Source of the DNA: Candidatus Poribacteria bacterium
GTDB taxonomy: Bacteria; Poribacteria; WGA-4E; PCPOR2b
Reading direction: 5' to 3'
Assembly (NCBI GenBank): GCA_965208325.1
Contig: OZ242326.1
Coordinates: 1,824,001-1,888,000 of the forward strand
Length of the DNA: 64,000 bases
The notes under the pieces were generated by a model. That model did not search any database and was not told where the DNA came from. It worked only from the letters and a program-made list of their open reading frames with translations. A program made the position numbers and the translations under genes. Shown piece after piece: positions 5,233 through 64,000 of this stretch; the first letter of the stretch is position 1, and every line of letters starts with the position of its first letter.

Positions 5233-7851
5233 CTAAAACAACGTCCGATATAGAATCTTGACGTTACGCCCCGGCTCCGGCATCACCGATTTGATTCTAG
5301 AAAGGTGTTGACGGAATTCAGTATTGAATATATTCTCGACAGTGGCTACAAATTGATGTTGAAGTTGCCACATTGAGAACACTACCTGCAAGCCGGCGTC
5401 GTAGACGAGGTACCCGTCTGTCTTTTCTTCAAATTCGCCTAGCCGCTGCTGGTCGTCCGAATACCGCGCTGTCAAATGCAAATTTAACGGTAGGGTAACG
5501 TAGCGCAATGCCACTCGTCCGTTGAGCGGCGGGATGCGTTCGAGCGGCAACCCGCTTGCCGCCAAAGACCCTTTGACGTAACTCATGTGCGACTCTACAT
5601 GAATTCGCGGGAAAATTTCGGCGTCAATACTGATTTCGGCACCGTCGAGGATAGCGTCTTGCCCCTGGTATTGATATATCCACAGCCACCCTGCTGCGCC
5701 GCTACCCCATTCCTTTTCCCCGGTTTGGGTCGGGCTCAGATAGCCGTAAATCTGGTTGCGAAAAACGGCGAGATTGAACTTCATACGGTTGCCTGAATAG
5801 CGCAGAAATGCTTCCGTACCGAAGCCATCCTCCGAACCGAGTTCAGCGTTGCCGATTTCATATGAAAATACCGCGAGATGCGGACCGTCGGAAAAGAGTT
5901 CTTCAATTCCGGGCGTGCGGAATGTTCTCATGAACGTGGCGCCCAACCCAAGGTTTTCGTTCCATTGATAGATGCTTGAGACTGCGCCTGACGCGCCTCC
6001 GAAGTCGCGCTGCTGTACCTTTCCTGCACGTATTTCGACACCTTCAACAAACGGCTCAACCCTTTTCGCGTCGTAACGAAGCGCTGCCTGTAGTGTGAAG
6101 TGGTTGTATCGCTTCTGTTTGAAGAAGAACCCCGCCAAAGATATCTCCCGGGTGTGAGGTGTCCAGTAAAACCCACCCGTCGCATGGTCGCGATACTCGC
6201 TCCAAATTCCTGCAACTGCATCGCCGCGCAAGTGCAGCAGTGCGGTTGTGTTGTATGTCAATACACCGAACTCCACGCCGAGCGTGTTGTTGGATTCATA
6301 CTCTTGGTGTTGATAGCGCGCGTAGGTCGAGTGCAGCTTAATTTTTTCGAGAAACGATCCCTCAAACGCGTATTCCAGATTGCCCTCATACCGTTGGCGA
6401 TCGAGGTCAATGGTAACACCTTGGATGTGGCCTTCGGGCGAGCCGGGGATTCCATAGTCTGAACGGTAGCGGCCGCCGGAAATCCCGATGTGCCCCCAAT
6501 CCTTTACCACTGAAGCACCGGTTGAAAAATTGGTGTTTGATAACGACGTGTTTTCCAAAGTACCGACAGGTGTTTGAATATCGCCGGCGCGGCGGCGGTT
6601 CAGCTCCAACCGCCACGCGAGGTTACCGACCGGAATCGTTACTCCTGTTGTTCCGGTCAGCCCTGAGTTTACCGATTCACTCTGAAACGTGAAGTTCATC
6701 GTCGGCTGGTTGGGGAGAGTTTGCGGGATGGTCTCGCGCTTGACGTTGACTACGCCGCCGAGTGTGCTTGAACCGTAAAGCAGCGACGCTGGACCACGCG
6801 TGATCTCAATCTTTGCCGCGGTAGTTGGGTCAATCGCAACGGCATGGTCAGCAGAGGATGCCGATTTATCGCCTGAGCGCCCGCCGTCTTCGAGGATGAG
6901 CAGACGGTTACCGCCCATTCCCCGGACAACCGGCCGTGCTGCCGATCGCCCCATCGTGCGCTGGGCGATTCCTAGCTCTCCACTAAGGGTCTCGGCAATA
7001 GTTGCGCCCATTTGTTGATTTAGCTTCTGATCAGAGAGTTTGAAATCGGTTGTTTTCTCAAACCGAGCGAGTTCGTCATCGTCAGCCGTGACAATGATTT
7101 CACCGAGCTGGACCGTGCTAGGTTTTAATTTTACATCCAGCCTTATCGGATCCGCATTGACAGCAATTTTCTGATTTAATGTCTCATAACCAACGCACAT
7201 GAATTGCATTCCATGTGTCCCCAACACAATTTGACCAAACTGAAACAGCCCAGTTTCATCAGTTCGCGATTGGATAGTCTTCCCCGCGGCAACAAGGGTA
7301 ACCTCGACGTCCGAGATTGGATTTTTCGTCTCAGCGTCAATCACTTGTCCTGAAACGGAAACGGTGCGGGGCGCGGACAATCCGTCTACATTATGCGTCA
7401 AGAGAATGGCAAAAAGAGAGAACGTAAAAAGTTTAATTGGAGTTATTTCTTTGACCTTGTTCGACAATTTGCAGAGTTGACACATACGGCAGAGATGGCG
7501 ATTGATGAGGTGAACAACTGCTAGCAGAAGTCCGCCCATAGCTATGAAGATTACTTCGCTCCCCTCTGATGCGTGAAACCGTGCAATGTAGATGAGTGTT
7601 AATGCACCACCGAGCATTAGAAACACTCGCCATTTTCGGTGGTGCCGATAGCCCCACGTGAAACTGCCGACAGCAACTCCCACTGCGCCGACAACCAACG
7701 CCAACTCCGCTGACTCGCTGAGAATAAACCCAAGCCCAACCAGAGGCAATACGGTCATCAAGAGCGGGGCTGCCATACAGTGGACGGCACACGCAAACGA
7801 CAAGCATGCGCCTACATTGTCCACGACTGTGTGATTCAGATATCTGTTCAA
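5233..7851 (-). CDS. MerC domain fused in frame to a TonB-dependent receptor (carboxypeptidase-regulatory-like domain + ZnuD-like plug/barrel)
   Basis: aa 1-~128 are nearly identical to stand-alone MerC 29993..30391. Then a signal-peptide-like segment, VSGQVIDAETKNPI...TDETGLF domain, and a plug/barrel paralogous to 2103..4970. Confidence 0.88.
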   Translation of the reverse strand: MNRYLNHTVVDNVGACLSFACAVHCMAAPLLMTVLPLVGLGFILSESAELALVVGAVGVAVGSFTWGYRHHRKWRVFLMLGGALTLIYIARFHASEGSEVIFIAMGGLLLAVVHLINRHLCRMCQLCKLSNKVKEITPIKLFTFSLFAILLTHNVDGLSAPRTVSVSGQVIDAETKNPISDVEVTLVAAGKTIQSRTDETGLFQFGQIVLGTHGMQFMCVGYETLNQKIAVNADPIRLDVKLKPSTVQLGEIIVTADDDELARFEKTTDFKLSDQKLNQQMGATIAETLSGELGIAQRTMGRSAARPVVRGMGGNRLLILEDGGRSGDKSASSADHAVAIDPTTAAKIEITRGPASLLYGSSTLGGVVNVKRETIPQTLPNQPTMNFTFQSESVNSGLTGTTGVTIPVGNLAWRLELNRRRAGDIQTPVGTLENTSLSNTNFSTGASVVKDWGHIGISGGRYRSDYGIPGSPEGHIQGVTIDLDRQRYEGNLEYAFEGSFLEKIKLHSTYARYQHQEYESNNTLGVEFGVLTYNTTALLHLRGDAVAGIWSEYRDHATGGFYWTPHTREISLAGFFFKQKRYNHFTLQAALRYDAKRVEPFVEGVEIRAGKVQQRDFGGASGAVSSIYQWNENLGLGATFMRTFRTPGIEELFSDGPHLAVFSYEIGNAELGSEDGFGTEAFLRYSGNRMKFNLAVFRNQIYGYLSPTQTGEKEWGSGAAGWLWIYQYQGQDAILDGAEISIDAEIFPRIHVESHMSYVKGSLAASGLPLERIPPLNGRVALRYVTLPLNLHLTARYSDDQQRLGEFEEKTDGYLVYDAGLQVVFSMWQLQHQFVATVENIFNTEFRQHLSRIKSVMPEPGRNVKILYRTLF

Positions 7852-7894
7852 TTATTGGCTCCTAACGTCATACGTTACTTTTACCGGTTTCCGC

Positions 7895-7955
7895 TTTGCC
7901 GGTCCGGCATGCCAAATCCGAATTAATCGCTAGATTTGGCACGCTGACAGGCAAA
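7895..7955. other. Long intergenic stem-loop between lipoprotein gene and merC (also 30435..30495)
   Basis: TTTGCCGGTCCGGCATGCCAAATC-loop-GATTTGGCACGCTGACAGGCAAA; no long U-tract, so more likely a stabilising or processing hairpin. Confidence 0.55.
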
Positions 7956-7968
7956 CTTATGTCTTCGG

Positions 7969-8601
7969 TTACGGCGTAACCGTTACGGGAATCAAGAGCG
8001 CCGCCGTGAAATCGGGATGGTCGCCGTGCATGAGTTGGAGCTTGATTTGCGTTTGACCGGCTTTAAGCCCTTTTACCTCAAAGGTGAATTGCTCGGCAAG
8101 CTCATCGCCGTGTTCATCGTGTTCCTCATGCTCATCATGTTCCTCATGCTCATCGTCATCGTCATGCTCATCGTCATCGTCGTGATCATCATGCTCATCG
8201 TGTTCGTCGTGATCGTCGTGGTAAAGGTGTACCTCAATGATTGATGAATCATATCCGCTGAGCGCTAAAGCAAACACCTCTTCCTCGCCATGTTCGTGGT
8301 CGTGGTCGTCTTCCTCTTCCGGATTCTCAGGAAAAAATTCATGGCTGTCGTGGTCAAGGAACGCGGTCAGAACGTCGAGTTCCTCTCCGACTTTGAGCGT
8401 GATACCTCCCGAATGCTCCCCTTCAAATTGACGGTATATCTCGTTCCCGTCAACCTTGAGGACAAAACCGTCTGCATCGGCGTGAAAGGGTTCATCGTCA
8501 TGGCCATTGTCGACAATAGGATTGTCGTCTTCACCGCAAGCAGCGAAAAGTGCAACAGATATGAGTAACAACAACGTAAAACGTAAAACAGGTGTAAACA
8601 T
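7969..8601 (-). CDS. His/Asp/Glu-rich metal-binding lipoprotein, copy 1
   Basis: ATG 8601 after GGAGGA RBS (track start 8637 is probably too long); lipobox LFAAC; HDDHDEHDEH tract; C-terminal LMHGDHPDF. Confidence 0.85.
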   Translation of the reverse strand: MFTPVLRFTLLLLISVALFAACGEDDNPIVDNGHDDEPFHADADGFVLKVDGNEIYRQFEGEHSGGITLKVGEELDVLTAFLDHDSHEFFPENPEEEDDHDHEHGEEEVFALALSGYDSSIIEVHLYHDDHDEHDEHDDHDDDDEHDDDDEHEEHDEHEEHDEHGDELAEQFTFEVKGLKAGQTQIKLQLMHGDHPDFTAALLIPVTVTP

Positions 8602-8760
8602 AATTTCCTCCAGACATAGATAGACTGTATTTCCCAAGCATCACGACTGATGAAACAGTGAAAAATAGGCAGACTACTGCCGAGACTATACACAAGTCAG
8701 CCGGGAAAGACAGATAAAGATTTGGTCAATAAAGACAGCGATATGAGATAAATGAGCAGT

Positions 8761-9066
8761 TTAAACGGGGATAGTCGGCGGGGCGCGACTCCGGACGCAT
8801 TTGTCAAGAATCGTAGAAATGAAAGGTAAGGTGATTGGTCGGCGAATTGAGATGCAGATGTCGAGATTGGTGACATCAACGGGGGTGAGTTCGATACCGA
8901 CGTGGTTGGCATTGAAGAAACAGGCGGAGCAGTGTTCTGAACAGCAATCAACATGCTCATGGTCGTGCGCAAGCGAGATAAGGTTTACCGTTATCAGGTA
9001 ATAGACGATTCCAATCGCTATTGCCCAGGCCACGCTGTTTGGGTGGATTCTAATCTTCTGCAACAC
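8761..9066 (-). CDS. DUF2946/CruR-like leader peptide (TM, HxH, CxxC, C-terminal RAPP), copy 1
   Basis: Hydrophobic N-terminus, AHDHEHVDCCSEHCSAC, ends RSRAPPTIPV*; GAGGTGAGGA RBS. Confidence 0.8.
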   Translation of the reverse strand: MLQKIRIHPNSVAWAIAIGIVYYLITVNLISLAHDHEHVDCCSEHCSACFFNANHVGIELTPVDVTNLDICISIRRPITLPFISTILDKCVRSRAPPTIPV

Positions 9067-9112
9067 TCCTCACCTCATTCATACGTACGAAAATTCGCCA
9101 ACACAGGACAGT

Positions 9113-9141
9113 ATATTAGCACAACCGATCGGTTTTGTCCA
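9113..9141 (-). promoter_or_regulatory. Putative sigma70 promoter with palindromic spacer, copy 1
   Basis: TGGACA-17-TAATAT on minus strand; AACCGATCGGTT palindrome at 9123-9134; conserved in copy 2. Confidence 0.55.
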
Positions 9142-9321
9142 ATTTTTCTGTTTCAAAAAATCGAACCCAGTGGGTATGACCGCCAATTCATCGCACTGAT
9201 TGAGCTAATGATATTGTTGATTCACCCGTCATCGGTAGTAAAGTTTAGATTAAAAGATTTCTATCCAGTCTCTCCTAAAATGCTGTACTATTTCCAATTT
9301 GGATTTGGCTTGCGCGTTGGC

Positions 9322-29992: not shown

Positions 29993-30391
29993 TTAGTTGT
30001 TCGACGTTTCGCAGTGTTGACACATACGGCAGAGGCGGCGATTGATGAGGTGAACAACTGCTAGCAGAAGTCCGCCCATAGCCATGAAGATTACTTCGCT
30101 CCCCTCTGATGCGTGAAACCGTGCAATGTAGATGAGTGTTAATGCACCACCGAGCATCAGAAACACTCGCCATTTTCGGTGGTTTCTATAGCCCCATGTG
30201 AAACTGCCTACAGCAACTCCCACTGCGCCGAATACCAGCGTCAACTCCGCTGACTCGCTGAGAATAAACCCAAGCCCAACCAGCGGCAATACGGTCATCA
30301 AGAGCGGGGCTGCCATACAGTGGACGGCACACGCAAACGACAAGCATGCGCCTACATTGTCCACGACTGTGTGATTCAGATATCTGTTCAA
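29993..30391 (-). CDS. merC: MerC-family inner-membrane protein
   Basis: D.vGaclSfaCAVHC..P; four TM segments; GYRNHR; HLINRRLC. Confidence 0.8.
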   Translation of the reverse strand: MNRYLNHTVVDNVGACLSFACAVHCMAAPLLMTVLPLVGLGFILSESAELTLVFGAVGVAVGSFTWGYRNHRKWRVFLMLGGALTLIYIARFHASEGSEVIFMAMGGLLLAVVHLINRRLCRMCQHCETSNN

Positions 30392-30508
30392 TTATTGGCT
30401 CCTAACGTCATACGTTACTTTTACCGGTTTCCGCTTTGCCGGTCCGGCATGCCAAATCCGAATTAATCGCTAGATTTGGCACGCTGACAGGCAAACTTAT
30501 GTCTTCGG

Positions 30509-31150
30509 TTACGGCGTAACCGTTACGGGAATCAAGAGCGCCGCCGTGAAATCGGGATGGTCGCCGTGCATGAGTTGGAGCTTGATTTGCGTTTGACCGG
30601 CTTTAAGCCCCGCCACCTCAAAGGTGAATTGCTCGGCAAGCTCATCGCCGTGTTCATCGTGTTCCTCATGCTCATCGTCATCGTCGTGATCATCGCCCTC
30701 ATCGTGATCGTCATCATCGTCGTGATCGTCATCGTGTTCATCATGCTCACCGTGATCGTCGTGGTAAAGGTGTACCTCAATGATTGATGAATCATATCCG
30801 CTGAGCGCTAAAGCAAACACCTCTTCCTCGCCATGTTCGTGGTCGTGGTCGTGGTCGTCTTCCTCTTCCGGATTCTCAGGAAAAAATTCATGGCTGTCGT
30901 GGTCAAGGAACGCGGTCAGAACGTCGAGTTCCTCTCCGACTTTGAGCGTGATACCTCCCGTATGCGCCCCCTCAAATTGACGGTATATCTCGTTCCCGTC
31001 AACCTTGAGCACAAAACCGTCTGCATCGGCGTGAAATGGTTCATCGTCATGGCCATTGTCGACAATAGGATTGTCGTCTTCACCGCACGCGGCGAACAGT
31101 GCAACAGATACAAGTAACAACAACGTAAAACGTAAAACAGGCCTAAACAT
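30509..31150 (-). CDS. His/Asp/Glu-rich metal-binding lipoprotein, copy 2
   Basis: Paralog of 7969..8601; lipobox LFAAC; ATG 31150 after GGAGGA. Confidence 0.85.
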   Translation of the reverse strand: MFRPVLRFTLLLLVSVALFAACGEDDNPIVDNGHDDEPFHADADGFVLKVDGNEIYRQFEGAHTGGITLKVGEELDVLTAFLDHDSHEFFPENPEEEDDHDHDHEHGEEEVFALALSGYDSSIIEVHLYHDDHGEHDEHDDDHDDDDDHDEGDDHDDDDEHEEHDEHGDELAEQFTFEVAGLKAGQTQIKLQLMHGDHPDFTAALLIPVTVTP

Positions 31151-31308
31151 TATTTCCTCCAGATATAGATAGACTGTATTTCCCAAGCATCAAGACTGAC
31201 GAAACAACGTAAAACAAGCAGACTACTGCCGAGACTGTATAAAACTCAGCCGGGAAAGACAGATAAAGATTTGGTCAAAAAAACAGAGATATGAGATTAT
31301 TGAGCAAC

Positions 31309-31611
31309 TTAAACGGGGATAGTCGGCGGGGCACGACTCCGGACGCCCTTGTCAAGAATCGCAGAAATGAAAGATACGGTGATAGGTTGTTGAATTGAGA
31401 TGCAGGCAGCAAGATTGGTGACGTCAACGGCGTTGAGTTCAATACCGACGTGGTTGGCATTGAAAAAGCAGGCAGAGCAGTGTTCTGAATTGACATCAAC
31501 ATGCTCATGGTCGTGTACAAGTGCAACAAGGTTAACCGTTATCAGATAATAAACGATTCCAATCAATACCCCCCAGCGAATGGGAGTAAAATGGATTTTA
31601 ACCTTTTGCAA
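31309..31611 (-). CDS. DUF2946/CruR-like leader peptide, copy 2
   Basis: HDHEHVDVNSEHCSAC...RSRAPPTIPV*; AGGAG RBS before TTG. Confidence 0.8.
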   Translation of the reverse strand: MQKVKIHFTPIRWGVLIGIVYYLITVNLVALVHDHEHVDVNSEHCSACFFNANHVGIELNAVDVTNLAACISIQQPITVSFISAILDKGVRSRAPPTIPV

Positions 31612-31660
31612 GACTCCTTACCTCATTCAAACGTTCAAAAATTCGCCAACACAGCATTGT

Positions 31661-31689
31661 ATTTTAGCACAACCAATTGGCTTTGTCCA
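31661..31689 (-). promoter_or_regulatory. Putative sigma70 promoter, copy 2
   Basis: TGGACA-17-TAAAAT on minus strand; spacer palindrome CCAATTGG. Confidence 0.55.
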
Positions 31690-31864
31690 ATTTTTTTGAT
31701 TCAAAATCGACAGGAATGGGTATCAAACCAAATCCATCGTACTGCCGCTAGGCACCTTGACAAAACTGGTAATAATCGTTTATTCTAAACTACAGCGAGG
31801 CCTTGGAATGTAATGGACCGAAACTGATTTCATTCATGATGACAAGAAAGGACTGTAATCCAGA

Positions 31865-47557: not shown

Positions 47558-47730
47558 TATTTTTCCTACGGGAACGGCGTGTTGTTTTAAGAACGTGATT
47601 GAAAAAAATGATGGTGAATTGACGTTTTTATATGCCAGCCGCGCGCGGGGAGAGATGATCCGCATACAAGCTGGCGTGGACTATTACCTGTCGCCCCGCT
47701 GGGGCTTTTGATGTGGGTAAATCGAATTTT

Positions 47731-49100
47731 CTATATACCTTTCGCCCCTCCGGGGCTTTCGGTTATGGCTAATAGTGCGGCGATGAGGGCAACCACAAGG
47801 GTTGCCCTTACAGAAAATGAATCCGATGTAAGGGATGGCGCTATAACCGTTGGATCTTCTAGTGCACGGGATTTGCTATCGCCTTGGTTTTTAGATCGGT
47901 TTGCCCTATTCAGTGGCTAGATTCCACGAAATACCTCACTCCAGCGTTGAGCGCGGCAAGATGCCGCGCCTACGGGGGGCGGTGGCACACGCGCGGCAAG
48001 ATGCCGCGCCTACGGGGGGCGGTGGCACACGCGCGGCAAGATGCCGCGCCTACGGAGGATGGTGAGGTACGATACGCTATATACCTTTCGCCCCACCGGG
48101 GCTTTCGGTTATGGCTAATAGTGCGGCGATGAGGGCAACCACAAGGGTTACCCCTACAGGGAATGAATCCGATGTAAGGGCTGGCGCTATAACCGTTGGA
48201 TCTTCTAGTGCACGGGATTTGCTATCGCCTTGGTTTTTAGATCGGTTTGTCCTATTCTGTGGCTAGATTCCACGAAATACCTCACTCCAGCGTTCAGCGC
48301 GGCAAGATGCCGCGCCTACGGGGGGCGGGGGCACACGCGCGGCAAGATGCCGCGCCTACGGGGGGCGGGGGCACACGCGCGGCAAGATGCCGCGCCTACG
48401 GAGGATGGTGAGGTACGATACGCTATACACCTGTCGCCCCGCCGGGGCTTTGGGTTATGGCTAAAAGTGCGACGATGAGGGCAACCACAAGGGTTACCCC
48501 TACAGAAAATGAATCCGATGTAAGGGCTGGCGCTATAACCGTTGGATCTTCTAGTGCACGGGATTTGCTATCGCCTTGGTTTTTAGATCGGTTTGTCCTA
48601 TTCTGTGGCTAGATTCCACGAAATACCTCACTCCAGCGTTCAGCGCGGCAAGATGCCGCGCCTACGGGGGGCGGTGGCGCACGCGGGGCAAGATGCCGCG
48701 CCTACGGAGGATGGTGAGGTACGATACGCTATACACCTGTCGCCCCGCCGGGGCTTTGGCTTATGGTTAATAGTACGACGATGAGGGCAACCACAAGGGT
48801 TACCCCTACAGAAAATGAATCCGATGTAAGGGATGGCGCTATAACCGTTGGATCTTCTAGTGCACGGGATTTGCTATCGCCTTGGTTTTTAGATCGGTTT
48901 GTCCTATGCAGTGGCTAGATTCCACGAAATACGTCACTCCAGCGTTCAGCGCGGCAAGATGCCGCGCCTACGGGGGGCGGTGGCGCACACGGGGCAAGAT
49001 GCCCCGAATACAAGGCGGCGTGCCTCACGCGGGGATAGTCAACCCCCATAAAAGGCGGCGCGGCGCACTCGGGGCAAGATGTCCCGCCTACAAGGCACCG
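47731..49100. repeat. Tandem array of composite REP-like units (starts 47731, 48077, 48423, 48729)
   Basis: Periods 346, 346 and 306 bp. Each unit has three hairpin types, a conserved spacer and 2-3 copies of a 40-bp GCGCGGCAAGATGCCGCGCCTAC subunit. Confidence 0.95.
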
Positions 49101-53222: not shown

Positions 53223-53335
53223 TAATGAGTGACAGCGGCGTTATGCGGGGTTGTGAATGGGGTAATCGCGGTATGGCTTCGCCCTAAACTTTAAGGTTTC
53301 GATTCCGTCATAATCAGTATTGGGTTGACCTGAGC

Positions 53336-54178
53336 GATAAGGGCAACCACAAGGGGTGCGCCTACAGAAAATGAATCCGATGTAAGGGATGGCGCTATAA
53401 CCGTTGGATCTTCTAGTGCACGGGATTTGCTATCGCCTTGGTTATTAGATCGGTTTGTCCTATTCAGTTGAGCGCGGCAAGATGCCGCGCCTACGGAGGA
53501 TGGTGGCATACGCGCGGAAAGATGCCGCGCCTACGGAGGATGGTGGCATACGCGCGGAAAGATGCCGCGCCTACGGGGGTGGCGGCACACACGCGGCAAG
53601 ATGCCGCGCCTACGGAGGATGGTGGCATACGCGCGGAAAGATGCCGCGCCTACGGGGGATGGCGGCACACGCGCCGCAAGATGCCGCGCCTACGGGGGAT
53701 GGTGGCATACGCGCGGAAAGATGCCGCGCCTACGGGGGGGCGGTGGCACACGCGCGGAAAGATGCCGCGCCTACGGGGGAGGCGGCACACGCGCGGAAAG
53801 ATGCCGCGCCTACGGAGGTGGCGGCACACGCGCGGCAAGATGCCGCGCCTACGGGGGTGGCGGCACACGCGCGGCAAGATGCCGCGCCTACGGGGGGCGG
53901 TGGCACACGCGCGGCAAGATGCCGCACCTACGGGGGGCGGTGGCATACGCGCGGAAAGATGCCGCGCCTACGGGGGTGGCGGCACACACGCGGCAAGATG
54001 CCGCGCCTACGGGGGATGGTGGCATACGCGCGGCAAGATGCCGCGCCTACGGGGGTGGCGGCACACGCGAGGCAAGATGCCGCGCCTACGGAGGGCGGTG
54101 GCACACGCGCGGCAAGATGCCGCGCCTACGGAGGAGGTGAGGTACGATACGCTATACACCTGTCGCCCCTCCGGGGCT
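53336..54178. repeat. Fifth composite unit with 17 tandem 39-41-bp REP-like subunits (53472-54131)
   Basis: Core GCGCGG(C/A)AAGATGCCGCGCCTAC counted 17 times; flanks match the 47.7-kb units. Confidence 0.95.
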
Positions 54179-54331
54179 TAATGATTTCGAGTTTCTATGA
54201 TATCTATATACACGGGAAAATAATTTTTGAAGTTATGATCGAAGATCCCCGCAGGGGTTTTGCTAAAGACTACCGGTGTTGAAAAATGTGAAATTTCAAA
54301 CAGGTTCGTAATAAATATTCAGGAGGTGAGA

Positions 54332-56483: not shown

Positions 56484-56754
56484 ATGAAGGAGGGTAAAGA
56501 ACCCCGCGGAGAAGCAAGGGTGGAAGGATGGAAGAGTAAAAACACTGCGGTTGCGTTGGTTGGCGGCCGCGAGGGGATTAATGCTAAAGACTTTAGGAAT
56601 ACCATCGCCCTCCCTATTCGGTCGGTTGATTAATTTACGCGAGAAACAACCTACAAAAACTATCGCCTTCCCTATTCGGTCAGTTGATCCTCCTTGGCAA
56701 GGAGGGGGACAAATGCTAACTTGTCCTTGGGAAGGAAGAGGGGAAGAAAACACC

Positions 56755-57351
56755 GTCTGAACTGTGTTTTGGGGGATTGAATGATGGGGTGGGATTGTCC
56801 GAACTGTGATGCGTGGGATTAAATGATGGGCTATGATTGTCTGAACTGTGATTTATTTGATTAAATGGTGGGGTGTGATTGTCTGAACTGTGATTCGTGT
56901 GATTAAATGATAGACTATGATTAAAGAAGAGCACAAGTTTTCGGAATTGACTGGGAAGGTGATTGGATTCGCGATGAAAGTTCATTCAGCGTTGGGAAAC
57001 GGATTTCAGGAAGTTATCTATCAGCGGGCATTAGAAATTGAAATGGCAAACGCAGGCGTAATTTTCAGCCGCGAGCACGAGATGCCAATCTACTATAATG
57101 GGGAGCAAATTGGCGCTCGAAGGGTTGATTTCTTAGTAGAATCCGTTGTCTGTGTGGAATTGAAGGCAATCATGCAACTGGAAGATATCCATTTGGCGCA
57201 GGCGATAAATTATTTGGAGGCATACGATTTGGAGGTTGGGTTACTTATTAACTTTGGTGCAAGAAGTCTTCAGTTTAAAAGGGTAACCAATGAGAATTTT
57301 AAGCAGAGAAATCTAGGTAATCCTAAAATTGCATGAATCACGGTTAAGACA
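56755..57351 (+). mobile_element. Repeat-bounded GxxExxY element A (4 x 42-bp left repeats, gene, inverted right end)
   Basis: Units at 56755, 56797, 56839, 56881 begin GTC(T/C)GAACTGTG; inverted AATCACGGTTAAGACA at 57336-57351; mobility is inferred. Confidence 0.6.
56917..57336 (+). CDS. GxxExxY protein (PD-(D/E)xK nuclease fold)
   Basis: VHSALGNGFQEVIYQRAL, RVDFLVE...ELKA, AQAINYL, GLLINFG. Confidence 0.93.
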   Translation: MIKEEHKFSELTGKVIGFAMKVHSALGNGFQEVIYQRALEIEMANAGVIFSREHEMPIYYNGEQIGARRVDFLVESVVCVELKAIMQLEDIHLAQAINYLEAYDLEVGLLINFGARSLQFKRVTNENFKQRNLGNPKIA

Positions 57352-57359
57352 TATTTGCT

Positions 57360-57670
57360 GTCTGAACTGTGATTCGTGTGATTAAATGATGGGCCATGAT
57401 TGTCTGAACTGTGATTTATGTGATTAAATGATGGGCTGGGATTGTCTGAACTGTGATTTATGTGATTAAATGATGGGCTATGATTAAAGAATAGCATGAG
57501 TATTCGGAGTTGACTGGGAAGGTGATTGGATGTACCATAACAGTTCGTTCGGGCGTGAACAGGAGAGGCCTATATGCTTTAGAGAGCAACAATACGGCGC
57601 GCAAAGAAACGATAATTTCAAGCAAAGAAATAGAAGGAAGTTTAATATTCTATAAATCACGGTTAAGACA
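57360..57670 (+). mobile_element. Internally deleted GxxExxY element B
   Basis: 3 x 42-bp units (57360, 57402, 57444); decayed gene start ATGATTAAAGAATAG...GGGAAGGTGATTGG; right end 57655-57670. Confidence 0.65.
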
Positions 57671-57673
57671 ACG

Positions 57674-60262
57674 ATGGCACTGAAGAAATCACAAATTTAC
57701 GCGTCGCTTTGGCAGAGTTGCGACGAGTTGCGCGGCGGCATGGATTCCTCCCAATACAAGGATTATATCCTGACGCTGCTGTTTATGAAGTATGTCTCGG
57801 ACAAGTACGCCGACGATAGTTACGCTCTGGTTGATATTCCTGACGGAGGCGGCTTCGAGGACATGGCGAAGCTAGGCGGCGACAAGGAGATTGGCGACAA
57901 AATCAACAAGATTATCGGAAGGTTTGCGGAGGCAAACGAACTCAAAGGGGTCGTCGATCAGGCGGATTTCAACGACGCGAGCAAACTTGGCGCCGGCAAA
58001 GAGATGCAGGACCGGTTATCCAAGCTGGTCGCTATATTCGATGCGCTCGACTTTCGTGCCAACCGTGCCGAGGGAGACGATTTGCTCGGAGACGCATATG
58101 AGTACCTCATGCGCCACTTCGCCACCGAGTCTGGCAAAAGCAAGGGACAGTTCTACACTCCCGCCGAGGTATCCCGCATCATGGCGAAGGTAATCGGAAT
58201 TGGGCCGGACACCCGGCAGAACCACACCATCTACGATCCGGCTTGCGGCTCAGGTTCGTTGCTGCTGAAAGCCGCAGACGAGGCGCCAAACGAAATTAGC
58301 ATTTATGGTCAGGAAAAGGACATCGCTACCTACGCGCTTGTGCGAATGAACATGTTTCTGCACGGCAATCCGACTGCGGTCATCTGGCAAGGAAACACGC
58401 TGTCTACCCCGCACTTCAAAAATCAAAACAGCGGCTTAAAGACCTTCGATTTCGCCGTCGCTAATCCGCCCTTCTCCGACAAAGCCTGGAACACCGGCTT
58501 CAATCCAGCGCACGACGAGTTTCGTCGCTTCGAGTATGGGGTTCCGCCCGCCAGAAACGGCGATTACGCCTTTCTGCTGCACTTCATTACCTCGCTCAAC
58601 AGCAGAGGCAAAGGCGCAATTATTCTGCCTCATGGCGTACTGTTTCGCGGCAACAAGGAGGCGGATATCCGAAGGAAGCTTATTCAACAAGGATTCATTA
58701 AAGGAATCATCGGTTTGCCCGCCAATCTTTTCTACGGCACCGGCATCCCCGCCTGCATTCTGGTCATCGACAAGGAGAACGCCCACGCACGTACCGGCAT
58801 TTTCATGATTGACGCCAGCAAGGGTTTCATTAAGGACGGCAACAAGAACCGACTCCGCGCCCAGGATATCCACAAGGTTGTGGATGTCTTCAATACGCAG
58901 ACTGAGCTTGAGGGCTACTCCCGGATGGTGCCGGTATCCGAGATTTCGGCCCCTACCAGCGATTACAACCTCAATATCCCGCGTTACATTGACGCCAGCG
59001 AGCCGGAAGATTTGCACGACCTTGACGCCCATCTGAACGGCGGCATCCCAGACACGGACATAGATGCGCTTAATACTTATTGGTCGGTATTTCCTTCGCT
59101 TCGTCCAGAACTGTTTAAGGCTAACGGGAGGCAAGGCTACAGCGACCCTAAAGTGGCGACGCAGCAGGTAAAAGCCACTATCCTCAATCATAGTGAGTTT
59201 GCCGCGTTCAAACTACGTGCGAGAATCATCTTCAACACTTGGTGGGATGCCCACGAACCGATTCTGCTAGGTGTCAATGCCGACACTATTCCCAAGAGAG
59301 TCGTCGACCGGTTATCGCAAGATCTCCTCGCCCAATTCAACAAACTTCCACTCCTTGATCGGTATGATGTGTACCAGGGACTAATGGACTATTGGGAAGA
59401 CGTCATGCAGGACGATGTATATCTGGTCGTAGCAGACGGCTGGTTGGCAGGACGAACCCTAAGGCAAACCTACGACAAGGAATTGCCGGATTTCACGAGA
59501 AAGAAAGGACAAAAAACTGTTAAGTACGTTGGTGAACTAATTCCAGCGTCTTTAGTGATTAGCAGATTTTTTTATGATGAAAAGAAGAAACTAGAGCGAC
59601 TTGAGGCCGAAATTGAAGTGTTGACGCAACGAAAGGAAGAATTTGAAGAAGAACACGGAGATGGCGAAGGGGCACTGGTTGGTCTTGAAGGTAGCAATGG
59701 GAATATAACTAAAGGCAATGTCACCAAACGAATGAAGGAACATCACGAAAACCTTTTGAAGGTATACCCAGATAAAACATCTAAACACACGCAAATTAAA
59801 TCGGTAAAGATCAAAGATCTGAGTAATAGAGAATGGATTGAGAAAATCAGAAACAAAGAAATTTTATCTAAGGAATCAAATAATTCTTATACTCATGATG
59901 CTGAAGGAATACTTGAGGAATTAGACGTGCTTTACGACTATCTCGAACTCCTAACAGTAGAAGCGAGACAAAAGAAGCTACACAAGTGTACACTTAATAA
60001 CCTACATACCGCGGTTATAGCAAAGTATGATAATCTGACCGAGGCAGAAATCAAAATACTTGTAGTTAAGGACAAATGGTTTACAGGAATCCAGGGAGTG
60101 ATCGAAGGCGAGGTTGAACGACTGACACAGCAACTTACCGGTCGTGTGAATGAGTTAGAGGAGCGGTATGCGCAGGCATTGCCAGAATTGGATTGCAAGG
60201 TACAAGCGTTCGCCATGAAAGTTGCAGCGCATTTACGAATGATGGGGATTGATTGGGCATGA
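57674..60262 (+). CDS. hsdM: Type I R-M methyltransferase subunit with long C-terminal extension
   Basis: LWQSCDELRG, GQFYTP, DPACGSG, ANPPF, PHGVLFRG, YNLNIPRY. Confidence 0.95.
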   Translation: MALKKSQIYASLWQSCDELRGGMDSSQYKDYILTLLFMKYVSDKYADDSYALVDIPDGGGFEDMAKLGGDKEIGDKINKIIGRFAEANELKGVVDQADFNDASKLGAGKEMQDRLSKLVAIFDALDFRANRAEGDDLLGDAYEYLMRHFATESGKSKGQFYTPAEVSRIMAKVIGIGPDTRQNHTIYDPACGSGSLLLKAADEAPNEISIYGQEKDIATYALVRMNMFLHGNPTAVIWQGNTLSTPHFKNQNSGLKTFDFAVANPPFSDKAWNTGFNPAHDEFRRFEYGVPPARNGDYAFLLHFITSLNSRGKGAIILPHGVLFRGNKEADIRRKLIQQGFIKGIIGLPANLFYGTGIPACILVIDKENAHARTGIFMIDASKGFIKDGNKNRLRAQDIHKVVDVFNTQTELEGYSRMVPVSEISAPTSDYNLNIPRYIDASEPEDLHDLDAHLNGGIPDTDIDALNTYWSVFPSLRPELFKANGRQGYSDPKVATQQVKATILNHSEFAAFKLRARIIFNTWWDAHEPILLGVNADTIPKRVVDRLSQDLLAQFNKLPLLDRYDVYQGLMDYWEDVMQDDVYLVVADGWLAGRTLRQTYDKELPDFTRKKGQKTVKYVGELIPASLVISRFFYDEKKKLERLEAEIEVLTQRKEEFEEEHGDGEGALVGLEGSNGNITKGNVTKRMKEHHENLLKVYPDKTSKHTQIKSVKIKDLSNREWIEKIRNKEILSKESNNSYTHDAEGILEELDVLYDYLELLTVEARQKKLHKCTLNNLHTAVIAKYDNLTEAEIKILVVKDKWFTGIQGVIEGEVERLTQQLTGRVNELEERYAQALPELDCKVQAFAMKVAAHLRMMGIDWA

Positions 60263-61524
60263 ACACGGCAAAGACACTATCGCCAATACCACATCTACAA
60301 AGGTTTAGCGGTGATTGGCAAATGAAGCGACTTCAGGAAATTTCAGATATTAATCCCCAGAACGTTTTAAGTAACACAAATCCAGACTACAAATTCAACT
60401 ACATTTCGCTTGAGCATGTAGATAAGGGAAGTTTGCTGGGTTATTCCGAAGAAGTCTTTCGCACAGCTCCCTCAAGGGCACAGCGCATCCTTCAACATGG
60501 TGACGTACTCATGTCAACAGTCAGGCCAAACCTTATGGCACATCTCTTTTTTCACGACCAAGTACCGAATGCCGTTTGTTCCACAGGCTTCGCCGTCCTT
60601 CGTGCAAAATGCAACCTATCCGCCCCTTATTTTCTATTTGTCCAATTATTTAGCCAAAGCGTGAATGATCAGATTACAAAAATCATTGCCGGATCGAATT
60701 ACCCAGCTATCAATAGCCGTGACATCATATTTATTGAGATTCCTTGCCCCCCTCAAATATGCGAACAGCACGCGATTGCCAAGGTACTGTCGGATGTGAA
60801 CGGTTTGATTGGGGCGTTGGATGCACTCATTGCGAAAAAGCGGGCAATCAAACAAGCAACCATGCAGCAACTCCTCACCGGTAAGGCACGCCTGCCGGGG
60901 TTTAGTGGGGAGTGGGAGGCAAGACAGTTGAGAGAGCTTGGTACCTTCAAAAAAGGCCGCGGGATAAAGCGAGATGAAATATCTTACGAAGGGCTGCCAT
61001 GTATCCGCTATGGAGAACTATACACACGATACCAAGACTATATCTTGAAGTTAGCATCTCGTATACCACCTACTGTTGCTGCAACTGCGTTGCCTATCAG
61101 GACTGGAGATCTCCTATTTGCGGGGTCAGGTGAAACCGCAGAAGAAATTGGGCGCTGCGCGGCGTATGTCGGCAAAGAAAAAGCGTACGCCGGTGGAGAC
61201 ATCATCGTATTGACAGCATCAGGACAGAATTCGATTTATCTTGGTCATCTAATGAACCATCCAATTGTGTCTGTGCAGAAAACTCGTATGGGTCAGGGCG
61301 ACGCTGTCGTTCATATCAGTACCAATAATTTGGCTCAAATTCAGATAAAACTCCCGCCTATTGCAGAACAAAACACCATCGCCACTGTACTCTCCGACAT
61401 GGACGCCGAAATTGTCGCGTTGGAGGAGCGTCGGGACAAGACCCGTGCCATCAAGCGGGGAATGATGCAGCAGCTTCTTACGGGGCGGGTACGGTTGGTG
61501 AAATCTGGTGCGGGTACGGTCTGA
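60259..61524 (+). CDS. hsdS: Type I R-M specificity subunit
   Basis: Two TRDs with conserved EQ.AIA.VLSD...K...MQQLLTG repeats; ATGA overlap with hsdM stop. Confidence 0.95.
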   Translation: MNTAKTLSPIPHLQRFSGDWQMKRLQEISDINPQNVLSNTNPDYKFNYISLEHVDKGSLLGYSEEVFRTAPSRAQRILQHGDVLMSTVRPNLMAHLFFHDQVPNAVCSTGFAVLRAKCNLSAPYFLFVQLFSQSVNDQITKIIAGSNYPAINSRDIIFIEIPCPPQICEQHAIAKVLSDVNGLIGALDALIAKKRAIKQATMQQLLTGKARLPGFSGEWEARQLRELGTFKKGRGIKRDEISYEGLPCIRYGELYTRYQDYILKLASRIPPTVAATALPIRTGDLLFAGSGETAEEIGRCAAYVGKEKAYAGGDIIVLTASGQNSIYLGHLMNHPIVSVQKTRMGQGDAVVHISTNNLAQIQIKLPPIAEQNTIATVLSDMDAEIVALEERRDKTRAIKRGMMQQLLTGRVRLVKSGAGTV

Positions 61525-61694
61525 GCTGTGATTCGTGTGATTAAATGATGGGCTATGATTAAAGAAGGGAATAAGTTTTCTGAGGTGACTGGGAAGGTGA
61601 TTGGCTGTGCCGAGACGGTGTATTCGGCAAACCGCCATTCACACAATCTTCAATCGATAAAATCGTGACAAATCCTTAAATCACGGTTCAGACA
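61519..61694 (+). mobile_element. Internally deleted GxxExxY element C
   Basis: One 42-bp unit (contains the hsdS TGA), MIKEGNKFSEVTGKVIGCA fragment, right end AATCACGGTTCAGACA at 61679-61694. Confidence 0.65.
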
Positions 61695-61749
61695 ATGTTA
61701 GATTTCGCCACTAAACTAGCTCCGCCATTTCGAATTAAAAGGACTGCCC

Positions 61750-61842
61750 TGCGGCATTAACCGGGGGATTATGCAGTAACTTCTCACGGGGCGGCTGCGG
61801 TTGATGAAGCCCAACCCAGCTCGGGAGCGATTGGAGAATTGA
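61750..61842 (+). pseudogene. Decayed hsdS 3' end
   Basis: Reads CGINRGIMQ*LLTGRLRLMKP versus RAIKRGMMQQLLTGRVRLVKS of hsdS. Confidence 0.75.
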
Positions 61843-62049: not shown

Positions 62050-62523
62050 ATGAATATTACATTTTCGGATCAGGAAATTGAAGCGTTGATACAGGAACGC
62101 AAAGTTTTACCCAATAACTGGTATGGGCAATTCTCCACAAAAAGGAAGCGTCGTCACAAGGAACGACATCTAGATGTGATTGGTGAAGCGGAGAATGAAT
62201 TTCACGTCATAATCAGGGAAAACCAAGTTAATCAGTTAGACTTTTCAGTCATTTTAGCGGTTCGTATTCCCGAATCAAGCAGAAGTTTCCGCCTTCGTCG
62301 CTACAACGGCGGGAGCCACGAACATACCAACCAGATTGAAAAAGTAAGGTTTCACGGCTTCCACATTCATTACGCGACAGAACAATATCAGCAGAAGGGA
62401 CTAGCAGAGGACTTGTATGCAGAACCAACAAACCGCTATACTGACGTTAATGGCGCCCTTCAGTGTCTGATTGTCGACGCAAATTTCGAAGAATCGAATG
62501 AGTTGCAGGGCACTCTATTTTAG
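62050..62523 (+). CDS. DUF6978-like protein
   Basis: LRRYNGGSHEHTN...GFHIHYATE. Confidence 0.6.
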   Translation: MNITFSDQEIEALIQERKVLPNNWYGQFSTKRKRRHKERHLDVIGEAENEFHVIIRENQVNQLDFSVILAVRIPESSRSFRLRRYNGGSHEHTNQIEKVRFHGFHIHYATEQYQQKGLAEDLYAEPTNRYTDVNGALQCLIVDANFEESNELQGTLF

Positions 62524-62535
62524 GAGGCGTAAGCA

Positions 62536-63306
62536 ATGTCCATCAATACCATAGAACAAGACTTCATGGCTAAGGTCTCGGCAGAGGTTCGACTTTCAGC
62601 CGAGGACAGCGAGCGTTTCCGTGTGTTTACCCCTTTCATGTTTGAGGACGGCGATCACTTCGTCATTGTCCTGAAAAAAGACGGTAATCGGTGGATACTC
62701 ACCGACGAAGCACATACCTTCATGCACCTCACCTACGACATTGATGAAAAGCTGCTTCATCGTGGTACGCGCCGGGAGATTATTTCTAAAGCGCTCTCCA
62801 TGTTCGAGGTGGAGGACCGCAATGGCGAGCTAATACTTGAAATACAAGATGGGTGTTACGGCGAGGCCCTTTTTTCCTTTGCTCAGGCAATTCTCAAGAT
62901 AGCCGACGTGTCGTACTTGACAAGAGAAAGAGTACAATCTACGTTTATGGAAGATTTTCACGCGTTGTTGCATGAAAAAGTGCCAAAACAGCGCATGAGT
63001 TTCAACTGGTGTCCTCGAGAATATGATACTAATGGAATATATGCGGTAGATTGTCGAATCAACGGAATGCCTGAACCGCTCTTCGTTTACGCCCTCCATA
63101 GTAACACTAGGGTCAGAGACGCCATAATTGCACTGCAACGGTTCAAGGCGTGGGAGATGCCATTTCAACCGCTGGGCATTTTTGAGGATAGGGAGAAAAA
63201 CACTCGCAAGGTATTGGCATGTTTCGACGCGGTGTGCGAAAAGCAGTTTCACAAGTTTTACGAAAACCAAGAAGAGATTGGAGTTTATCTAAGTCAGTAC
63301 ATCTGA
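62536..63306 (+). CDS. DUF1828 domain protein with C-terminal nuclease-like fold
   Basis: AGGAGG RBS; VFTPFMFEDGDHFVIVLKK...WILTDEAHTFMHL; YAVDCRING. Confidence 0.75.
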   Translation: MSINTIEQDFMAKVSAEVRLSAEDSERFRVFTPFMFEDGDHFVIVLKKDGNRWILTDEAHTFMHLTYDIDEKLLHRGTRREIISKALSMFEVEDRNGELILEIQDGCYGEALFSFAQAILKIADVSYLTRERVQSTFMEDFHALLHEKVPKQRMSFNWCPREYDTNGIYAVDCRINGMPEPLFVYALHSNTRVRDAIIALQRFKAWEMPFQPLGIFEDREKNTRKVLACFDAVCEKQFHKFYENQEEIGVYLSQYI

Positions 63307-63355: not shown

Positions 63356-64000
63356 ATGATTGAGAAGCGGTTAAGAAACCTCTGGGGCCAGTTACAAAGT
63401 AAGAAACCGCATCTGCCGCATTTTCTGTCAGAAATAAGCTTGGATGGTATCCGTGGATTTAGTGATTTAAGGGTGCGATTCGATTACCCAGTGAGCGTAA
63501 TTGCCGGAGGAAACGCTACGGGCAAGTCAACGGTACTCTTTACGGCTGCGTGTGCCTATAAGGTGACAGGCGCCGGTGTTAAAGATTTCGTGCCCTCCTC
63601 TTTATTCCCGGATTACCACCCCAAGGTCGGCGGACGCAAAGACATGCGGCAGACGGTCACGATGGATTTCTATTACCAAACACCTGACGGAATTGCTTCC
63701 ATGCGGTGGCGGCGCGGCAAAGGCTGGAATCGGAGTTATTTTGGCCGCAAAAACGCCAGTCAGCCCGAGCGGCAGGTCTATCTCAGAACGCTCAGCAATC
63801 TGAGTAATCCGTCAGAGGTACGCGGCGTTCTCAACATGTCGCGCCTGAAGACCAAACCTGAAGAGACTCCCTTGACGGCACTAGAGATTGAATTTGCCCA
63901 TCAGATGCTTCCTTTCAGATATTCTGAGGTGGTAAATTTGTCCAGCGGCAAGAAAAATCTCCTCTTTGCCTCGCAAGAAGGCGGGGCGGCTTACTCCGAG
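63356..64000 (+). CDS. ABC/AAA_21 (OLD-like) ATPase, 3'-truncated by window edge; absent from ORF track
   Basis: AAGGAG RBS; 215 open codons MIEKRLRNLW...; GIRGF..LRVRFDYPVSVIAGGNATGKST (Walker A). Confidence 0.85.
   Translation, partial: MIEKRLRNLWGQLQSKKPHLPHFLSEISLDGIRGFSDLRVRFDYPVSVIAGGNATGKSTVLFTAACAYKVTGAGVKDFVPSSLFPDYHPKVGGRKDMRQTVTMDFYYQTPDGIASMRWRRGKGWNRSYFGRKNASQPERQVYLRTLSNLSNPSEVRGVLNMSRLKTKPEETPLTALEIEFAHQMLPFRYSEVVNLSSGKKNLLFASQEGGAAYSE

Follow-up and report, generated by a model that had tools for sequence, protein, structure and literature searches.

A gene of the GxxExxY nuclease family lies just upstream of a type I restriction-modification operon in a genome of Candidatus Poribacteria, and repeats similar to those flanking it, with remnants of the same gene, bracket hsdM-hsdS in this operon. 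Do the gene and its repeats constitute a mobile element, and did this element deliver the restriction genes? The original prediction proposed the former, as a pair of autonomous and non-autonomous (MITE-like) elements, and raised a shuffling of defence genes as a possibility. The window considered here is a stretch of 64,000 nucleotides, G000:C1:1824001-1888000, from a genome represented by a single contig of 4.7 Mb. The features of the locus, in window coordinates, are as follows.

56484..56754, no strand assigned: intergenic mosaic of other dispersed repeats between the ABC-ATPase gene and element A; its modules recur genome-wide
56755..56922, plus: left array of A with four 42-bp units, at which a 12.2-kb island has its left boundary
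56917..57336, plus: intact GxxExxY gene, 139 aa, with its ATG within the last unit of A
57327..57351, plus: right arm of A, an inverted counterpart of the left unit for some 25 nt
57352..57358, plus: 7-nt spacer between A and B; similar spacers separate tandem copies in G003, G036 and G053
57360..57670, plus: element B, three left units, gene remnant and right end; stops 3 nt before hsdM
57674..60262, plus: hsdM, type I methyltransferase, 862 aa
60259..61524, plus: hsdS, specificity subunit; the last codon and the stop come from the left unit of C
61519..61694, plus: element C, one left unit, deleted gene and right end
61695..61724, plus: right flank of C, 30 nt, matching G001 at 25/30 positions and the flank of an element at a non-restriction site in G045 at 18/30 (G001 against G045, 21/30)
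61748..61808, plus: second, decayed hsdS 3' end, from the long duplication around C
62050..63306, plus: DUF6978 and DUF1828 genes (PADLOC PDC-M24B match), island cargo
63356..64000, plus: AAA ATPase gene running past the window, followed by hsdR and a 244-aa gene before the right array

Structure of the element and its protein

Elements A, B and C have common 42-bp left units and an inverted 16-bp end. The eight units start at 56755, 56797, 56839 and 56881 (A), 57360, 57402 and 57444 (B) and 61519 (C), and are identical to their own consensus in 34-41 of 42 bases. A 9-nt GATT period is seen in the sequence of the unit and is mirrored in the right arm; comparison of the arms gives inverted ends with a 16-nt core and an imperfect extension to about 25 nt. 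The right ends have the form AATCACGGTT(A/C)AGACA, with last positions 57351 (A), 57670 (B) and 61694 (C). Element A is thus a unit of roughly 470 bp, one GxxExxY gene between inverted arms of 9-nt-period repeats. A 30-nt arm pattern has 56 matches in the genome and none for the reversed control, which is not chance.

Most of the predicted architecture is confirmed: four, three and one left units with the start codon at 56917 in the last unit of A, the inverted right end common to all three elements, an intact gene in A whose product exceeds the GxxExxY profile cut-offs, the end of B 3 nt before hsdM, and the start of C within the end of hsdS, whose TGA stop (61522-61524) lies inside the first unit of C. 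It was also stated that B and C keep only about 20-25 decayed 5' codons. They are indeed deleted copies, but "only" does not hold: both are internal-deletion derivatives that keep both gene ends, including 3' sequence, and B, with two internal deletions, keeps a middle piece as well (77% identity to the G001 gene over 66 nt).

In profile searches the product of the intact gene scores 133.3 bits with TIGR04256 (GxxExxY, cut-off 35) and 128.1 bits with PF13366. The predicted structure (pLDDT 88) has a PD-(D/E)xK fold and keeps residues E32, D71, E81-x-K83 and Q95-xxx-Y99; in an alignment of 88 sequences E32, D71 and K83 are invariant and E81 is near-invariant. The best fold matches are Cas4 SSO0001 (Z 7.9, rmsd 3.4 over 104 residues) and BpuSI (Z 7.7, rmsd 3.0 over 95), and none reaches Z 8. 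No transposase family was found in Pfam and NCBIfam scans or among the 50 fold matches listed, no GIY-YIG domain was present in the domain scan or the fold matches, no sequence relative was found in the PDB, and an Atlas search yielded no usable match. A table in PMC3424549 gives the function of GxxExxY/PDDEXK_3 as unknown.

The restriction operon and its filled and empty sites

The operon is a complete type I operon consisting of hsdM, hsdS, the DUF6978 and DUF1828 genes, the AAA ATPase gene, hsdR and the 244-aa gene, and the frames of hsdM, hsdS and hsdR are open. Both target-recognition regions of hsdS differ from their G001 and G003 counterparts. In hsdM, the 3' third (window 59400-60262) has a GC content of 41%, as against 53% in the 5' part, and is unlike that of congeners, so this hsdM is a mosaic.

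The last gene of the operon is followed by 1.6 more left units (G000:C1:1892855-1892922), which form the right boundary of the island; the 12,168 bp between the direct left-unit arrays are the whole defence island. In G002, where the flanking genes are 92% identical, these genes adjoin, with one degenerate unit between them (34/42 to the consensus). Integration into an orphan arm and excision leaving one would both give this, and the G002 site could mark a past excision instead of a target. In G001 and G003 the island lies elsewhere in this region, at a site some 20 kb farther along in G000 coordinates, where G000 and G002 carry orphan arms; the G001 island has no arm at its right end. It is likely that orphan left units, lying in repeat mosaics, are recombination points, with arrays of them bounding the whole island. 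The suggestion that the repeats may shuffle defence genes is supported in so far as they bound defence DNA whose position differs between relatives, but not in the form of an hsdM-hsdS cassette delivered by B and C.

The latter conclusion follows from the states of the two junctions. The orthologous operon of G001 has full-length frames at both positions, an intact element at B and, at C, a copy with changes at two conserved positions. In G003, three copies precede hsdM, two of which are separated by a 56-nt stub of hsdM. No copy follows hsdS; this site is empty, and the hsdS end of G003 matches the stub behind C in G001. Empty sites, which had been sought, are also found more widely, as the GxxExxY gene is missing from both junctions in all 17 homologous hsdM-hsdS loci, which come from 15 other relatives, and 4 of these element-free operons have gene-less arms of a related subtype nearby. 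Relatives that lack the element have the same gene order in the operon, and hsdM-hsdS stays with hsdR. Since the 17 loci are element-free and G003 is filled at B and empty at C, B and C have been gained or lost separately, and the operon predates the insertions.

Thus the delivery of hsdM-hsdS as a single B-C cassette is not supported, in view of the conserved gene order and of G003, although hsdM-hsdS does lie between two element copies in both G000 and G001. A clean cassette is further disfavoured because a stub and the rest of the operon lie behind C. In another family (G045, G051, G042), the element occurs at the chromosomal site of G001, with no intact restriction operon and with a right flank like that after C; this leaves room for an hsdM-hsdS cassette in one historical step. 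In G054 (L125:7200-7440) there is a second hsdS 3' stub, resembling the stub behind C, and after it a CAGGATT-type arm that has no GxxExxY gene.

Contigs from a run of another study (X5) contain A with 0/507 and B with 1/290 differences, the two lying on unitigs joined by a 30-nt overlap only. The neighbouring genes differ by 4-9% (ABC gene 60/1629, hsdM 79/896, hsdR 195/2098), and hsdS is not covered at 90%. As the dead copy B is better conserved than the adjacent genes, the comparison points to a recent transfer of the A-B block. An assembly artefact was rejected, as A and B are present in these independent contigs. Run X6 has one weak joint (depth 3.7) leading from the right end of A straight to hsdM. 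No circle junction occurs among the contig joints listed, and contigs drop rare forms; no RNA data set containing the locus was among those listed.

Homologues and dispersed arms

The nearest homologues have 57-81% identity and come from Bacteroidota, Chloroflexota, Verrucomicrobiota, Cyanobacteria and others. Among the loci with enough flank, both arms are present in 62 of 76 from genomes and 42 of 60 from metagenomes, as against 3/266 and 6/266 control windows, with a matrix seeded in part from homologue loci. The co-occurrence of the repeat with GxxExxY genes, which had been proposed as a check, is therefore observed in several phyla. The 16-nt ends are sharp, symmetrical and kept across phyla with unrelated flanks, and tandem copies and pseudogenes of the element are frequent.

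By hand count, with 154 neighbours scanned and two of the loci identical, 39 of 80 loci have a Pfam domain of restriction-modification systems in the ORF closest to the element; the other 41 homologues have no restriction-domain neighbour. The arms fit into operons: the left arm contains the end of the upstream ORF in 52 of 95 cases, and the downstream ORF begins at most 11 nt from the right end in 50 of 108. Other genes found at the same junctions in homologue loci are RhuM, Fic, KilA-N, Bro-N and DUF1016.

In the G000 genome the left unit gives 89 nhmmer hits. Copies beyond the locus do exist: at E<=0.001 there are 64 of them, none within a long ORF, and these dispersed copies are one-ended. 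There are only six convergent arm pairs within 700 nt, all within A, B and C, which are the only two-ended copies in the genome. The numbers of arms (56 in G000, 2 in G001, 27 in G002, 7 in G003 and 113 in G057) do not follow the presence of the gene. Indeed, G001 has two GxxExxY genes and 2 arms, while in G057, a 93% complete genome, no GxxExxY gene was found despite the 113 arms, 10 of 10 sampled ones being one-ended. It is thus probable that orphan arms are multiplied along with the repeat mosaics around them, and not by the GxxExxY gene. REP-like modules occur near 55 of the 64 dispersed arms, as against 18%, in a test that is circular, the motifs having been taken from the same contexts.

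Taken with the empty sites and the near-identical A-B block in a diverged strain, the arms found across phyla demonstrate that the element is a real, widespread small mobile unit favouring restriction-gene junctions and not, as the prediction had already held, a local accident. Local duplication alone was rejected because of the dispersed copies, the copies in congeners and the arms in other phyla. A phage or plasmid vehicle was likewise rejected, with one locus in viral contigs, 8 of 72,556 plasmid records and one weak PHROG.

A quick protein tree is mostly unresolved (10 of 85 branches strong) and mixes the phyla. The restriction label requires 20 changes on it, of which only 3 are forced; for these reasons no donor was drawn from the tree.

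Several further observations were made in these genomes. The G000 genome has two GxxExxY genes and three type I hsdM genes, two of which touch a GxxExxY gene. The second GxxExxY gene (L012, G000:C1:1114585-1115130) directly follows another hsdM, has CAGGATT-type arms of a related subtype, and is followed by a gene-less hairpin copy. Two Y1 transposase matches (PF01797, G000:C1:1955941 and 3321944) may drive the repeat mosaics. In the window, positions 47640-49100 and 53330-54180 contain long REP-like tandem arrays of a 39-40-bp GC-rich repeat (GCAAGATGCCGCGCCTAC core) with higher-order units of 306-346 bp. Two diverged copies of a block lie about 22.5 kb apart (window ~7450-9160 and 30000-31710); a 9-nt repeat in these blocks would encode a His-rich tract on the minus strand.

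Among the homologues, one to three tandem elements occur just upstream of an 1,100-aa gene in G053, G036 and G039 (L234:7412-8560, L133:8311-9375, L134:7177-7650), with spacers of 7-8 nt copied from the left flank; G002 has another arm subtype at a locus like these. An element copy in G003 (L112, C1 ~3954400-3956000) encloses a DUF1761 fragment and two short ORFs, presumably resembling a nucleotidyltransferase-HEPN pair, a possible capture of cargo between the arms. Loci L076 and L078, from records labelled Saprospiraceae and Gracilibacteria, are the same in the element and flanks, which would mean recent transfer or a binning error.

Mode of spread and related systems

Pairs of insertion sequences and MITEs have terminal inverted repeats, intact and deleted copies, a DDE transposase, a short target duplication of fixed length and dispersed two-ended copies. 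The element has inverted ends and both intact and deleted copies, but no fixed short duplication and no dispersed two-ended copies, and no DDE transposase was recognised in the domain scans or among the fold matches listed. One explanation would nevertheless be cut-and-paste movement, in which the nuclease mobilises gene-less two-ended copies and, by means of B and C, an hsdM-hsdS composite cassette. The ends are true inverted repeats, and two full-length direct copies enclose hsdM-hsdS in G001, the left one with the native left flank and the right one with the native right flank, as expected if a circle had integrated into a resident copy. However, the target duplications that had been sought are not seen: in 104 loci duplications of 1-9 nt stay at the permutation level. 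In addition, the three two-ended copies of the genome are all at this locus, the sampled arms of G057 are one-ended, G003 is filled at B without C in an operon whose order is that of element-free relatives, and there is no transposase fold among the matches listed. We consider this explanation very unlikely, and the MITE-like pairing of autonomous and non-autonomous copies is not supported, as the arm number does not follow the presence of the gene either.

Long duplications, on the other hand, do occur. Direct repeats of 18-98 nt within 6 nt of both ends are present in 9 of 104 distinct loci, 95 having none, and a duplication score of at least 30 is reached in 11/104 loci as against 11/481 control windows. 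The duplicated sequence is either the beginning of the gene downstream or the end of the one upstream; at C, the variable direct duplication, longer than about 20-30 nt, is present in G000 and G001 and the allele is empty in G003. Across eight coding cases, 20 of the differences between copies are synonymous and 16 non-synonymous, which departs from the decay of a perfect duplication at p=0.007; these cases were picked after seeing the data, with four short-frame cases and two duplicates omitted, and one of them (C of G001) gives 19 of the 36 differences. The enrichment in synonymous changes suggests recombination between alleles, and would fit two working alleles having recombined.

We therefore tend towards a selfish unit that would spread by recombination between homologous restriction operons, with one junction, at the element end, predicted to be cut by the nuclease; the evidence from sequence comparison leaves this reading about evenly poised. 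The element has settled at the stop/start junctions of a type I operon. A donor segment, comprising the element and the adjoining gene end, would enter a recipient allele either as a small circle, through a single crossover, or in linear form, joined by homology at one end and illegitimately at the other, and would leave behind a stub of the recipient's gene end. One junction would be fixed at the element end, where GxxExxY is predicted to cut. As the donor segment carries ends of restriction genes, the preference for restriction operons would follow. B and C would be older copies that decayed here; A is an intact tandem copy. Arrays of left units bound the island, which occupies different arm-marked sites in congeners. 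The nuclease may take part in the spread, possibly by starting recombination.

In a stronger and rather unlikely version, the element would be homing-like, of an undescribed type and specialised on restriction operons, and GxxExxY would be its end-cutting enzyme, cutting at its own arm and dragging an hsd gene end, or a whole new hsdS, into the recipient allele, the orphan arms being landing pads for the relocation or loss of entire defence islands. To our knowledge, no such arms accompany the Rpn/YhgA-like proteins or the homing nuclease I-Ssp6803I, which resides in an intron. The Rpn/YhgA-like PD-(D/E)xK proteins (PMC5350276, PMC10400941) are reported to belong to the same fold family and to be tied to horizontal transfer or homing, and I-Ssp6803I (PMC3424549) shares this fold family with GxxExxY and has a homing link; in both cases the likeness is by fold and not by sequence match.

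Every footprint could be explained by host recombination. The unit might be a passive passenger, with GxxExxY an accessory (defence or regulatory) nuclease, the arms operator or packaging sites, movement due to RecA-dependent and illegitimate recombination of the host, and selection keeping the insertions that spare hsd. The adjacency to restriction genes in 39/80 loci and the accessory genes at the same junctions agree with this; so do the long target duplications known for restriction genes without a mobility gene (PMC2853133) and integration with one homologous end, a known host route (PMC3240628). No PADLOC model matched, and this explanation needs none. However, ends so sharp and symmetrical, kept in unrelated flanks, argue against a passenger, and tandem copies and pseudogenes are so frequent that a selfish unit is a better fit than a beneficial gene. 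The passenger explanation is possible but doubtful.

Where restriction-modification genes insert with long target duplication (Furuta et al. 2010, PMC2853133), the duplications are, as here, variable, long, imperfect and direct, there is no recombinase gene, and parts of operons are flanked by inverted repeats. However, the inserted unit there is the restriction system itself, whereas here a nuclease cassette with fixed inverted ends enters restriction genes, and one junction coincides with the element end. The supplementary tables of that paper, on restriction genes flanked by inverted repeats, may hold such elements.

A closely similar design is that of the GIY-YIG nuclease Ssn with its NTS/SRM repeats (Chenal et al. 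2025, PMC11893778): a small single-domain nuclease gene with the cognate repeat on both sides and dispersed, in an IS-like layout without proven transposition. The element differs from it in having a PD-(D/E)xK nuclease, in 9-nt-period arrays inverted around the gene instead of self-hairpins, and in its strong preference for restriction-gene junctions. By analogy, GxxExxY could be a repeat-specific single-strand nuclease that trims or restricts incoming arm-bearing DNA, with the dispersed arms as targets and mobility as a side effect. The NTS-ssnA-NTS arrangement with many dispersed copies (PMC11893778) and the presence of Cas4 and RecB-like single-strand nucleases among the nearest folds agree with this. 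However, a single arm is not a palindrome, the nuclease superfamily is another one, and the wobble pairs between the arms of 106 homologues have no strand bias (124 G.T against 111 A.C, p=0.22), so this role seems highly improbable. Selection for an RNA or single-strand hairpin, as in intervening sequences, was rejected on the same count, although element A does fold arm to arm with G.U pairs (z -2.28).

The REP/REPIN repeats with RAYT, as described by Bertels and Rainey 2011 (PMC3116915), are likewise dispersed extragenic repeats tied to one gene, and the likeness extends to the two Y1 matches of the G000 genome and to orphan arms in REP-like mosaics. However, the element has no HUH tyrosine enzyme, the PF01797 matches lie elsewhere, and the orphan arms are singlets and not inverted doublets. 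On this comparison the element works like a gene-plus-repeat module of the Ssn or RAYT type, while belonging with neither MITEs, REPINs nor Ssn. No paper on GxxExxY-associated repeats was found in the literature covered, the main texts of freely accessible papers.

The GxxExxY family is very common and has no known function; the 16-nt end with its 9-nt-period GATT boxes is now a defined candidate substrate for it, so that binding and cleavage by GxxExxY become directly testable. At this locus, filled, decayed and empty states can be compared within a single genus. If GxxExxY promotes exchange of alleles at hsd junctions, it would provide a route to change restriction specificity and to move defence islands with neither an integrase nor a transposase.
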